Origin: Polyangia bacterium | GTDB taxonomy: Bacteria; Myxococcota_A; Polyangia; Fen-1088 | Assembly: GCA_038257535.1 (NCBI GenBank) | Contig: JBBSJE010000005.1 | Coordinates: 1,383 to 65,382 of the forward strand | DNA length: 64,000 nt | Direction of reading: 5' to 3' | In this document: piece by piece, positions 263 to 9,291 of the stretch | Numbering within the stretch: the first letter of the stretch is position 1 | Layout: each line of letters opens with the position of its first letter | The notes under the pieces: generated by a model | The model's input: the letters and a program-made list of their open reading frames with translations, nothing else | The model's database searches: none | Told to the model about the DNA's origin: nothing | Position numbers and translations under genes: made by a program

Positions 263-841
263 CTAACGGGCCAACGATCGCCCGTTGATCCGAATGAGCT
301 GCTGCGCCAAAAGTTCTATCGGGCCTTCAACGTCCGGTTTGAGAACCATTTTGACGGCCTTTGGGGCCACGGGGCTTTCTGCGGTTGCGGGATCTTGAAC
401 GTAGACCAAGCCGCCTTGCCGCTTCACAGCCAGTGCGCCTTGCGCCCCATCGTCGCTGGCACACGTCATCACCACGGCAATGACAGATGTGCCATGTGAG
501 GCCGCCGCGGACTCGAACAGCACGTCGATGGAAGGGCGGGCGTAGCGTACCGGGGCATCCAAAGACAACACAAAGCGATCGCCATCCACCAAGCAGTGAT
601 AGCCGGCGGGCGCCAGATAAACTTGCCCGTTCTCGATGGGATCTTTGTCGTTGGGCTCCATCAGGGTGCGGGAGGTCGCTGGCTTAAGCAGCGCCAACAA
701 AGGGCCCTCCGGCGAATCGTGCCGCCGATGTTGAACGATGACCAAAGGCGCTTGCACGGCGTCTGGAACCGCGCGCAAAAAACGTGTCATGGCGGAAAGT
801 CCACCCAACGACACCCCAACAACAACAACCGGCATGCTCAC
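263..841 (-). CDS. cheB: Protein-glutamate methylesterase, CheB catalytic domain only (no N-terminal receiver)
   Basis: 192 aa. The CheB triad contexts are present: 'VVGVSLGGLSAM' (Ser), 'LVIVQHRRH' (His) and 'PSIDVLFESAA' (Asp). The start overlaps the cheR stop (ATGA at 838-841). Confidence 0.85.
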   Translation of the reverse strand: MSMPVVVVGVSLGGLSAMTRFLRAVPDAVQAPLVIVQHRRHDSPEGPLLALLKPATSRTLMEPNDKDPIENGQVYLAPAGYHCLVDGDRFVLSLDAPVRYARPSIDVLFESAAASHGTSVIAVVMTCASDDGAQGALAVKRQGGLVYVQDPATAESPVAPKAVKMVLKPDVEGPIELLAQQLIRINGRSLAR

Positions 842-1704
842 GACCGTGTCTTCCGAAAAACCCTCAAGCCTGGCTCGATCTCTTCATAAACATCCGCGTG
901 GGGATTGCCTCTGAGGCTTTCCTTCTTGCCAATTCCTAAGATGCCGAAGGGCGTTAGGCTTCCGTTGATCAAATCAAAAACCCGCGTTTGTAGCGTTACA
1001 TTAAAGTAGATGTTCACATTGCGACAGAAGATGAGATGAAACTCGTTGAAAATCTCATCAGTTGCCAGATTGTGCTGTGAAAATATAACGTTCTTCCGCA
1101 AGTTTGCTCTGACGATGGCGTGTGCATTGTCAGTCAGATAGTAGGAGGAAAAATCCTCTCGGCCCCCGGCCTGCTGGTACGCCAGGGTGTAGTCACGCAT
1201 CGTGCTGATGGGCAAGATCCCCCTGCGGGCACGATCAAGAACCGCGTCGCTCATGTCGGTGGCATAGATTCGGCAGCGATCGTACAGCCCCTCTTCCTTG
1301 AGCAAGATGGCCAGGGAATACACTTCCTCACCCGTGGAGCAGCCTGCCACCCAGATCCGCAAAAACGGGTACGTTCGCAGGTGTGCCACCACCTTTTTGC
1401 GTACCAACATGTACACATCCGGATCTCGAAACATCGAGGTGGTGTGCACCGCCAAGCTTTCCACAAAGCGGCCCATCGCGGCGGGATCATGCAAAATTCG
1501 GTCGAGCAAAGTCGTGATGCGGGAGATCCCCTCCATGTCCTGGATCTTCTGCAATCGTCGAAGCAGGGAGGCGCGAGCGTAGTTGCGAAAATCGTACCCA
1601 TAGCGACGAAAGATGCCTTCAAGCAGAAGGTCAACTTCCAGGTCTTTTAAACCCTGTTCGCTACTTGGGGCCATAGGCGGTGAGTTTTCTATTTGTATAG
1701 CCAA
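838..1704 (-). CDS. cheR: Chemotaxis-type protein-glutamate O-methyltransferase CheR
   Basis: 288 aa. The N-terminal helical domain reads '[27 protein letters not shown]'. 'TSMFRDP' and the SAM-binding '[20 protein letters not shown]' are present. The called start is TTG at 1704; an alternative ATG at 1674 lies downstream of the kinase stop. Confidence 0.9.
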
Positions 1705-7502: not shown

Positions 7503-7858
7503 GGCACTGGCGGCTGCTTGGGGGAGGGGAGAAACTTGATGATGTCGTCGAGATCGATAGGTTTAACCAGATAAGCGTCGAAGCCGGCCTCGTCGGCGGC
7601 CAGATGGTCGCTCTGTCGGCCAAAGCCTGTCATTGCCACGAGCTTTGGCTTTGCGCCCAAACGTTTGCGAATCGTTCGGGCCACTTCATGGCCATCGACG
7701 CGGGGCATGCCCACATCAACGAAGGCGACGCTGGGCATGTGGTCACAAATGACTTTGATGCCTTCTTCACCATCGCGCGCGGACCGAACGTCGTAGCCCC
7801 ACGACTCAAAGAGATCGCAGAGCGTTTCACGAATGTCGATGTTGTCGTCCACCACCAC
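7499..7858 (-). CDS. Single-domain response regulator (receiver), or the receiver of a frameshifted hybrid kinase
   Basis: 119 aa. '[12 protein letters not shown]...[16 protein letters not shown]...LVAMTGFG...GFDAYLVKP' is a canonical CheY-like fold. GTG start at 7858, with 'AGAGGGG' about 9 nt upstream. The stop shares ATGA with the poly-HAMP kinase start. Confidence 0.8.
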
Positions 7859-9291
7859 AACACGAAACCCCTCTGGGGCGACGTGCTCAAGCTGGGGGGG
7901 GGTGTGGCCATGGGCGACCGCGCCGAGGGGGCGTCAGTTGAACGAGACCGTTCGACCAAAGGCAGCGTGACCGTAAAGCTGCTTCCCCGATCGATGCCTT
8001 CACTCTGTGCGGTCACGGTGCCGCCATGCAGTTCAACCAGCCGGCGCACAAGGGTAAGCCCGAGGCCCAGTCCGCCATTGGCGTTGGGTCGCCGTTGTAC
8101 AAAGATGTCAAAGATTGTGGGCATCAACGCGGGGTCAATGCCCGTGCCATTGTCGCGAACCGTAACAGAGGCCTCGCCTGCGCTGTGGGAGGAGGAAAGT
8201 GAGATTTGGCCCCCCGGATTGGTGTACCGAGCGGCGTTGTGAAGCAGGTTGGAGACGATTTGAATCATCCGGACCGGATCCGCCATCAACGTCAATGGCT
8301 CAGGCGCCAGGTCGACCTTCAAAATGTGCCCCCGCTCGTCCAAGGCGGGCTTTGCTGTGACGATGGCTTGTTCGATGATGGCGTTCAGTGAGATTGGCTC
8401 GGTCTCGATTTGGATCTTGCCGCAGTTGATGCGTGAGATGTCGAGCAAATCATCGACCAAACGACGCAAATGCCGCACTTGCCGATCAACGGTGGCGAAC
8501 GCGCGGGCTTCGGTCCCATCTGCATTCACATTCGCTAGCAGCGGCCCCTGGATGAGTCTTAAGCCGGTCACGATGGGGGCCAAAGGGTTGCGCAGTTCGT
8601 GGCCTAACATGGCCAAGAATTCATCTTTTCGTTGGTCGGCTTGTGCCAGCTCCTCAAGCCGCTTCCGCATCGCTGCCTCGTCCCAGCGCCGCTTTTCCTC
8701 CTCAAGCACGCGTTCGTGTTCACGCCGCTGATGTTCGCGCAACTGTTCAGCCTGCAAACGCAACTCTTCCGCGCGCCGACGCAGCTCTATGAAGACGGAC
8801 ACCTTGGCGCGCAACACCTCTGAGGTGATCGGCTTGAACAAAAAATCCACCGCGCCCATCTTGTACGCCTCGAGCACTTGCGTGTCGTCGCGGGAATAGG
8901 CGGTGGCAAAAATGATGGGCGTGTGTTGCGTGCGTGATCGGGCGCGGATGATCTTGGCGGTCTCAAAACCGTCGAGGTCGGGCATTTTCACATCAAGCAC
9001 CACCACGGCAAATTCTCGTTCGAGCAGGCAGCGCAAGGCTTGCTGACCGGAACTGGCGCGCACCACATCAGCCGCGATCCCGTCCAGGGACGCCTCGAAA
9101 GCAGACAGGTTGTGGGGGTTGTCGTCAACGATAAGAATCGCCGACCGCGTGACATCTACCAACGGGGCCTCGGTGCGTTCAGGGGGATAAGAAGACTCGA
9201 TCCAAGTCAAAGCAATGTTCAGGCCACTGCTAAAGCCTTGATTCCAAGGTGCATTCTCTCTGCGCGTTACGATACGGAAACCGTGTTCCAC
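7630..9291 (-). CDS. REC - coiled coil - HisKA - HATPase sensor kinase; the 3' end is unreliable (out-of-frame tail after a C9 run)
   Basis: Receiver: 'ILIVDDNPHNL...VVLDVKMPDLDGFE'. H-box: 'FLAMLGHELRNPLAPI'. HATPase: 'VRDNGTGI' and 'GGLGLGLTLVRRLVELHGG'. The start is uncertain: GTG at 9291 or TTG at 9162. The 666-aa ORF in the track extends over cobW and is not credible. After 'TVTLPL...MATPPP' the frame runs out of phase across the next gene to 7630. Confidence 0.7.
   Translation of the reverse strand: MEHGFRIVTRRENAPWNQGFSSGLNIALTWIESSYPPERTEAPLVDVTRSAILIVDDNPHNLSAFEASLDGIAADVVRASSGQQALRCLLEREFAVVVLDVKMPDLDGFETAKIIRARSRTQHTPIIFATAYSRDDTQVLEAYKMGAVDFLFKPITSEVLRAKVSVFIELRRRAEELRLQAEQLREHQRREHERVLEEEKRRWDEAAMRKRLEELAQADQRKDEFLAMLGHELRNPLAPIVTGLRLIQGPLLANVNADGTEARAFATVDRQVRHLRRLVDDLLDISRINCGKIQIETEPISLNAIIEQAIVTAKPALDERGHILKVDLAPEPLTLMADPVRMIQIVSNLLHNAARYTNPGGQISLSSSHSAGEASVTVRDNGTGIDPALMPTIFDIFVQRRPNANGGLGLGLTLVRRLVELHGGTVTAQSEGIDRGSSFTVTLPLVERSRSTDAPSARSPMATPPPSLSTSPQRGFVLWWWTTTSTFVKRSAISLSRGATTFGPRAMVKKASKSFVTTCPASPSLMWACPASMAMKWPERFANVWAQSQSSWQ
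7894..7902. repeat. G9 (coding-strand C9) homopolymer at the kinase/receiver junction
   Basis: Read directly from 'gct ggggggggg tgtgg'. See the finding for the three reading-frame outcomes. Confidence 0.95.

Follow-up and report, generated by a model that had tools for sequence, protein, structure and literature searches.

The window analysed here is a 64-kb stretch (C5:1383–65382) of the metagenome-assembled genome (MAG) of a Polyangia bacterium, which comprises 7.2 Mb in 547 contigs and is 95% complete. Domain calls were made by Pfam and NCBIfam profile searches on translated open reading frames (ORFs). They reveal a packed four-gene operon on the minus strand at positions 263–9291, which runs from a first hybrid kinase through a second hybrid kinase of 1937 amino acids (aa) to a CheR-type methyltransferase and finally a CheB-type methylesterase (Table 1). 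The tight chain from 9291 to 263 described in the original prediction is borne out by the Pfam matches and by a reading of the junctions, as is its count of five receiver (REC) domains, two kinases and no output domain within the operon (Pfam). Methyl-accepting chemotaxis proteins (MCPs), CheA and CheW are indeed absent from the window (Pfam searches for MCPsignal, CheW and CheA dimerization domains), and the MCPsignal, CheW and H-kinase_dim models have zero matches on the whole of contig C5.

The gene junctions required some adjustment. The stop codon that ends the first kinase gene and the start codon of the 1937-aa kinase overlap in the letters ATGA at 7499–7502, as claimed. The TAG stop of the 1937-aa kinase likewise lies at 1689–1691 as reported, but its placement inside the cheR gene is unlikely to hold. 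The cheR frame is open from TTG 1704, and a start at ATG 1674, 14 nt past the kinase stop and yielding a protein of approximately 278 aa, is more likely because the orthologous CheR in the same-genus assembly GCA_033763315.1 is similar in length (276 aa) and begins 19 nt past the kinase stop without overlapping it. At the junction between cheR and cheB, the letters at 838–841 read GTGA and not the ATGA given earlier, with the next ATG at 835–833. Because the next genes 3′ of cheB are either convergent (a CBS-like ORF) or unrelated, cheB ends the unit. A promoter and terminator scan of the operon returned nothing exceeding the shuffled background.

Table 1. Features of the CheR/CheB kinase operon, in window coordinates
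Feature	Position	Strand	Basis or remark
Receiver-less CheB methylesterase/deamidase, predicted	263..841	-	CheB_methylest, E 2e-41
CheR-type protein-glutamate O-methyltransferase, predicted	838..1674	-	CheR_N and CheR Pfam matches in 838-1704
1937-aa hybrid histidine kinase, no predicted transmembrane segment	1689..7502	-	Pfam
Candidate methyl-accepting tract, kinase residues 1200-1220	3843..3905	-	47-67 residues before phospho-accepting His1267
First kinase, REC-HisKA-HATPase-REC hybrid (CfcD-like partner)	7499..9291	-	Pfam; two frames in assembly
First kinase, C-terminal REC	7499-7858	-	Pfam
G9 homopolymer (coding-strand C9), frame-shift point of first kinase	7894..7902	-	Three-frame translation
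First kinase, HATPase	7957-8280	-	Pfam
First kinase, HisKA	8422-8628	-	Pfam
First kinase, N-terminal REC	8800-9138	-	Pfam

The 1937-aa kinase combines an unusually long sensory array with a conventional kinase core. Pfam finds nine HAMP and ten HAMP_2 stretches, a GAF domain, HisKA, HATPase_c and three Response_reg domains. The poly-HAMP region covers residues ~45–1010, followed by GAF at 1042–1179, a signalling helix at ~1190–1257, HisKA at 1258–1325 with the phospho-accepting His1267, HATPase at 1373–1490 and then the three receivers, so that the order GAF, signalling helix, HisKA, HATPase_c and C-terminal REC is present. An A-x-G-D-L connector recurs at an exact period of 92 residues from residue 151 to 892, which defines nine di-HAMP units, and the NCBIfam Aer2 model matches these HAMP repeats. 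A Kyte–Doolittle scan in 19-residue windows found no N-terminal hydrophobic segment, the highest-scoring window (1.64) lying inside the GAF domain, and Pfam returned zero CHASE3 matches in this protein. Its first and third receivers carry the acceptor-Asp motif by regular-expression search; the second reads DLKLPDMTG.

Upstream of His1267, an alignment of family kinases shows a conserved helix of 75 residues, and within it lies the 21-residue tract that we consider the candidate methyl-accepting site. Its Glu pairs are spaced seven residues apart. The tract is near-invariant before the H-box in 41/41 CheB-linked kinases and, after later additions, in 50 unique kinases, with EQ, QE or QQ replacing EE at the first and third pairs in some lineages. 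A comparable E/Q interchange occurs at the methylation sites of chemoreceptors. The classical methylation consensus is Glu-Glu-X-X-Ala/Ser-Ser/Thr, and the heptads compared with it (EELQAT, EELVAS and EELQST) fit, EELQST being of the type seen in CheB–CheR fusion kinases. Across cassette loci of the window's own phylum the tracts span QQEELQAANEELEE to the weaker QQEELEVTNSELKQ.

Within this genome the tract is also rare. Among all six-frame ORFs of 150 aa or longer (n=13,784), only four match the regular expression EEL..[STQNA].EEL, namely the 1937-aa kinase and three long CheB–CheR fusion sensor kinases (C132:8215-12018, C308:953-6202 and C414:3-3029). In these fusion kinases, NEELQSx heptads occur in runs after the CheR domain and resemble a methyl-accepting segment built into the protein. 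Such runs were found in all 19 complete CheB–CheR fusion ORFs from relatives (19/19; L149–L168, n=20 with one incomplete). What is new here is the argument, drawn from sequence, that one Glu-Glu-Leu heptad tract appears to accompany CheR and CheB in cassettes and fusion kinases alike. Literature searches on CheR/CheB with HAMP or CHASE3 kinases and on CheBR fusions returned nothing on the poly-HAMP variant or the heptad tract.

Both modifying enzymes retain their catalytic motifs. The CheR translation includes FCRNVNIYF, which we take, along with a second CheR motif, to represent the typical S-adenosylmethionine (SAM)-binding motifs of this family. CheB is 192 aa long from GTG 841, or 190 aa from ATG 835, and its ORF holds the only CheB_methylest match in the window. 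It consists of the esterase domain alone, as the original prediction held: the stop-to-stop frame is only 206 aa, leaving at most 14 extra residues, so an N-terminal receiver is impossible. Ser11 (in GVSLGG), His38 (in IVQH) and Asp131 are invariant across 28 CheB homologues and presumably form the catalytic triad, by comparison with Ser164/His190/Asp286 of Salmonella CheB.

The relationships of the two enzymes set them apart from the chemotaxis paralogues of the same genome. CheR is 44–58% identical to cassette CheRs in other phyla versus 28–31% to the other CheRs of its own genome, and CheB is 37–52% identical to its cassette homologues versus 30–37% to own-genome paralogues. Judged by these identities, the pair is an old, dedicated kinase-linked lineage rather than a recent duplicate of chemotaxis enzymes.

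The first kinase gene is split between two frames in the assembly. Its upstream piece lies in ORF 7630–9630, which is open from 9630 with start candidates at GTG 9291, TTG 9210 and TTG 9162. In one frame '...SPMATPPP' precedes the C9 run, and coding continues after the run in another frame. In GCA_033763315.1 one uninterrupted REC-HisKA-HATPase-REC orthologue of 576 aa reads '...EPPQLTSS...' through the junction and aligns to the two pieces with 60% and 63% identity, with no further stops. Because this orthologue spans both pieces, the apparently stand-alone REC at the 3′ end, previously taken for a separate gene, is instead the C-terminal receiver of the first kinase, cut off by the frameshift. 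As read from the alignment, the split is a one-base length difference in the homopolymer, arising either from an error in the MAG assembly or from a real frameshift. Homopolymer length errors are frequent in metagenome assemblies.

Homologues of this cassette are widely distributed. A homologue search with the receiver-less CheB returned more than 4,300 stand-alone proteins of similar length, and the same-genus assembly GCA_033763315.1 carries the identical four genes in identical order. A scan with a CheB alignment, run over one genome per species, yielded 80 loci, which span cyanobacteria, Acidobacteriota, Gaiellaceae and other Actinomycetota, Polyangiales, Myxococcaceae, Gemmatimonadaceae, Chloroflexota, Chitinophagales, a gammaproteobacterial MAG and Chthonomonadales. 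The cassette recurs in at least eight phyla. At 78 of the 80 loci, the neighbours of CheB are a REC-kinase, the combination of CheR with a GAF hybrid kinase, or all three; the exceptions, L086 (on a 6.6-kb contig) and L122, have no REC-kinase, and L086 also has no large kinase. A GAF-HisKA hybrid kinase with 0–8 HAMP matches falls within the 10-kb flank at 41/80 loci, usually directly upstream of CheR. At the remaining loci, mostly from Nostoc, adjacency is confined to CheB–REC-kinase or CheR–CheB–REC-kinase. The gene order with the REC-kinase first is also found in Polyangiales and Myxococcaceae (L049 and L076). The original prediction had proposed profiling whether receiver-less CheB and CheR recur beside poly-HAMP kinases; the partners are GAF hybrid kinases with either CHASE3 or poly-HAMP input. 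Since both types of input occur and alternate within the cassette family, we treat the CHASE3 domain and its membrane anchor as a variable input and not as a core feature; the core itself is fixed.

Linkage between the enzymes and the tract was also found when the search began from the kinase. A degenerate DNA pattern of the tract was run against 301 genomes of the window's phylum and 81 cyanobacterial genomes. It matched 3/301 own-phylum genomes, all three matches being the cassette, and 6/81 cyanobacterial genomes. Among the newly found motif-bearing kinases with a readable downstream flank, CheR and CheB lie directly downstream in five of seven. The other two (G368 and Nostoc NIES-4103, G337) have a CheR–CheB–REC-kinase triad at another locus. 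For two further motif kinases the flank is ended by a contig end, and their genomes also encode the triad elsewhere. From the CheB side, a close homologue (E ≤1e-32) was detected in 11/301 own-phylum genomes, with 12/12 loci representing the cassette. In cyanobacteria, CheB is present in 10/81 genomes, nine of them with the motif or its EQ variant and one (G378) with CheB and its kinase unchecked; the other 71/81 have neither this CheB clade nor the motif. The surveyed genomes are related and these co-occurrence counts are not independent events. The pattern of co-occurrence between CheB and the kinase is consistent across phyla.

Several arrangements within the family depart from the compact operon. 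In some cyanobacteria, split cassettes place the motif-bearing GAF kinase megabases from the CheR–CheB–REC-kinase triad (L075/L128 of Nostoc sp. NIES-4103, L126/L138 and L129/L139). In the Elainella locus a CHASE3-HAMP-GAF kinase is divergent from CheR–CheB. Many Nostoc MAGs have ~7 kb of unrelated genes between cheR and cheB, which from their sequences look like cytochrome oxidase subunits. With a CHASE3 member of the family (1219 aa) as query, at least 8,000 kinase homologues were retrieved, and the top 120 of these are almost all cyanobacterial.

The closest biochemical precedent is RsbK of Bacillus cereus, which has the domain order CHASE3, HAMP, GAF, S-helix, histidine kinase, CA and REC, with His505 as its histidine (PMC4574943). 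According to that source, which cites Chen et al. 2012 and de Been et al. 2010/2011, the adjacent CheR-type RsbM methylates the RsbK signalling helix and thereby represses activation of sigma-B. The authors describe the RsbK/RsbM module as widespread and give no residue numbers for the methylated sites (PMC4574943). The likeness lies in a kinase of the order GAF, signalling helix, HisKA, HATPase and REC encoded next to a CheR-type methyltransferase gene. On the other hand, RsbK is membrane-bound with CHASE3 and a single HAMP, whereas the kinase here has no predicted transmembrane segment and carries roughly nine di-HAMP units in a row; there are three receivers here against one in RsbK; and a receiver-less CheB is encoded here, whereas B. 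cereus has no partner esterase (PMC4574943). Furthermore, a domain search of the contig found no REC-PP2C (RsbY) or sigma-B partner-switch output genes linked to the cassette.

Similarly, the cfcABCDE genes of Pseudomonas putida encode a CHASE3/GAF hybrid kinase, CfcA, which activates the diguanylate cyclase CfcR, together with a CheR/CheB pair and a REC-containing protein (PMC4951495, PMC6849547). Around bmsA-type genes the order is likewise kinase, CheR, CheB and hybrid kinase (PMC8175716). A chemotaxis role of the Pseudomonas cfc CheR/CheB is reported to be excluded (PMC4951495, citing Garcia-Fontana 2013). The cfcABCDE and P. alkylphenolica bmsA clusters share four core genes with the present locus, encoding CheR, CheB, a hybrid kinase with GAF and another kinase with REC, and they too have no MCP, CheA or CheW in the cluster. 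They differ in that CfcA and BmsA are described as CHASE3/GAF proteins, whereas the kinase here is poly-HAMP with no predicted transmembrane segment; in that the REC-kinase gene stands first here and last in Pseudomonas; and in that the Pseudomonas output is the REC-GGDEF-EAL protein CfcR, whereas no regulator of the REC-output type is linked to the cassette.

Comparison with chemoreceptor adaptation in Escherichia coli and Salmonella reveals a homologous CheR and CheB catalytic domain, Glu-Glu pairs that recur every seven residues along a coiled coil and are followed by small or polar residues, and E/Q alternation at the pairs. The present system differs in having no MCP domain, no CheA/CheW array and no phospho-feedback from CheA to CheB, since CheB has no receiver, and its presumed substrate is the signalling helix of the histidine kinase itself. 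The CheB–CheR fusion kinases likewise tie CheB and CheR to a kinase without an MCP and are accompanied by NEELQSx heptads. In the fusions, however, a single polypeptide carries the enzymes and the tract, with PAS and kinase modules after them, whereas here the genes are separate and the tract is placed between the GAF and HisKA domains. The CheR and CheB of the cassette are only ~30–37% identical to the fusion domains. Fungal group III kinases (Nik1/Os-1) and Aer2-type chains resemble the sensory array, with concatenated HAMP pairs at a 92-residue period feeding a hybrid kinase. To our knowledge, the fungal kinases lack a GAF domain, a signalling helix with Glu-Glu pairs and partner CheR/CheB enzymes, and Aer2 differs in being an MCP. 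A survey of Geobacter che genes and a CheR-TPR survey make no mention of the cassette.

A search with hidden Markov models across the MAG shows that a canonical set of MCP, CheA-like and CheW genes exists elsewhere in the genome, which is half of what the original prediction named as its refutation, but nothing shows the CheR/CheB pair of 263–9291 to serve it. Only two MCPsignal matches were detected (Pfam). On C114 an MCP, a REC-CheB of 365 aa and a CheR stand in a row. CheW is confined to C336, where it adjoins a CheA-like frame of 694 aa with Hpt and CheW-like domains as well as the second MCP copy. A further frame of 353 aa at C41:5914-6972 carries a CheB catalytic domain at its N terminus (residues 19–207) with ~150 residues after it, which is not the REC-then-esterase order.

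Taken together, these observations suggest that the locus is probably a four-gene cassette of the RsbK/RsbM and CfcABCD/Bms type, in which CheR and CheB would tune the Glu-rich signalling helix of the 1937-aa kinase. The kinase is favoured as the target because CheR and CheB form a distinct kinase-linked lineage; because close CheB homologues accompany a GAF hybrid kinase with the Glu-Glu tract, either adjacent or elsewhere in the genome (with G378 unchecked); because the canonical MCP, CheA and CheW genes have their own REC-CheB and CheR; and because RsbM methylates the equivalent helix of RsbK (PMC4574943). Adaptation of the 1937-aa kinase and not of a chemoreceptor array, as proposed earlier, is the best-supported reading by sequence comparison and analogy, and it is not a new one. 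The system is already precedented by RsbK/RsbM, and the operon is a member of a known, widespread and little-studied kind, with a poly-HAMP input free of transmembrane segments and the REC-kinase gene placed first.

That CheR and CheB instead modify another non-MCP target, such as the REC-HK-REC partner (HK, histidine kinase), one of the five receivers or an unlinked response regulator, appears unlikely. No gene accompanies CheB more constantly than the REC-kinase, many Nostoc loci keep it adjacent while the large kinase lies elsewhere, and methylation of the response regulator PhoP by CheR is reported for Salmonella (PMC8546571). However, the tract that travels with CheR and CheB, in cassettes and in fusions, is that of the large kinase, the RsbK precedent points to the S-helix, and neither the REC-kinase nor the receivers yielded a candidate site. 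The architecture of the REC-kinase is itself variable (REC-PAS-HK in cyanobacteria and REC-coiled coil-HK here), and among the homologues compared no conserved Glu-Glu heptad tract was found in its linker, by which the linker was ruled out as an alternative methyl-accepting site.

It is very improbable that the pair serves the ordinary chemoreceptors of the genome as an additional adaptation module and is merely parked beside kinase genes. A receiver-less CheB could in principle act on MCPs, and MCP domains (C114 and C336) are indeed encoded in the genome, as are CheW and the CheA-like protein that combines Hpt with CheW-like domains. But one of the only two MCP copies sits beside its own REC-CheB and CheR and the other with the CheA-like and CheW genes; the synteny of cassette and kinase is kept across phyla; the CheR/CheB lineage stands apart from the chemotaxis paralogues; and the reported exclusion of a chemotaxis role for the Pseudomonas homologues argues in the same direction. 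We regard it as improbable, too, that the cassette is decaying in this genome, with a real frameshift in the first kinase leaving CheR and CheB without a working pathway. The REC-HK-REC gene does lie in two frames across a 9-base homopolymer, but both halves remain 60–63% identical to the orthologue without additional stops, every other gene of the cassette is intact with conserved catalytic residues, and length errors of this sort are common in metagenome assemblies.

Tuning of the 1937-aa kinase by CheR and CheB is nevertheless weakened by several points. That the tract corresponds to the residues methylated in RsbK is argued from domain order and not from an alignment, and conservation of the tract helix could stem from the mechanics of the kinase and not from recognition by the enzymes. 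Removal of the only CheB had no effect in B. cereus (PMC4574943), and since that organism has no partner esterase either, any role of the esterase is putative, in the precedents as well as here. In P. putida, mutants in the other cfc genes are reportedly without the CfcA phenotype (PMC4951495), so CheR and CheB are perhaps merely modulatory. Finally, with its first kinase frameshifted, the cassette may not be fully functional in this genome.

If CheR and CheB do act on the 1937-aa kinase, CheR would transfer methyl groups from SAM to the glutamates of the heptad tract, within the coiled-coil helix that joins GAF to the phospho-accepting helix. CheB would remove them and, in relatives with Gln at the pairs, would deamidate Gln to Glu. 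Because its inhibitory receiver is absent, CheB is proposed to be constitutively active, by analogy with truncated CheB of enteric bacteria. The extent of methylation might then depend on how well the sites are exposed by the helix, following the conformation imposed by the poly-HAMP/GAF input, and the neutralization of charge would alter helix packing and reset both the balance between autokinase and phosphatase activities and the kinase output. Phosphoryl groups would reach a downstream regulator by way of the three receivers and the REC-HK-REC partner.

A more tentative proposal is that the Glu-Glu-Leu heptad tract might be a portable methyl-accepting helix that provides a general, MCP-independent mechanism of adaptation for histidine kinases. 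Sensory adaptation through reversible methylation of glutamate is commonly presented as belonging to chemoreceptor arrays. The occurrence of the cassette in many phyla suggests that ordinary two-component kinases are able to carry this tuning device as well, for which there are two precedents, one biochemical (RsbK/RsbM) and one a genetic model (cfc/bms in Pseudomonas). If true, a constitutively active CheB without a receiver, paired with a dedicated CheR, would endow a soluble poly-HAMP kinase with a conformation-gated resetting akin to integral feedback, the heptad tract would be a cis substrate in thousands of CheB–CheR fusion kinases, and reversible glutamate methylation would constitute a widespread second layer of control in two-component signalling, beyond the single one-way case established to date, that of RsbM with no esterase. 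The copy in the window adds little alone, yet it offers a clean soluble example without a membrane domain and with a sharply defined candidate site of 21 residues.

Potential outputs and phosphotransfer proteins in the vicinity were also surveyed. Hpt has zero matches in the window, and the three matches in the genome fall on C336, C141 and C48. GGDEF has 24 matches genome-wide, and the single one in the window is a PAS-GGDEF protein without REC (25468–26424). The sole SpoIIE/PP2C protein on the contig lies in the window at 27253–28914, 18 kb from the cassette, and has 553 aa, with no receiver and an N-terminus of 350 residues without a domain match. As outputs of the cassette, this PP2C protein and the GGDEF protein, 17–20 kb away, were rejected on the grounds that both are without receivers. 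A PAS-HisKA-HATPase kinase at 28929–30104 adjoins the SpoIIE/PP2C protein. Immediately beside the operon and divergent from it, positions 9367–11110 of the window encode a CobW-type GTPase (9367–10308), an ArsR/SmtB-type regulator (10379–10768) and a short ORF (10772–11110), which together look like a metal-homeostasis unit outside the signalling cassette.

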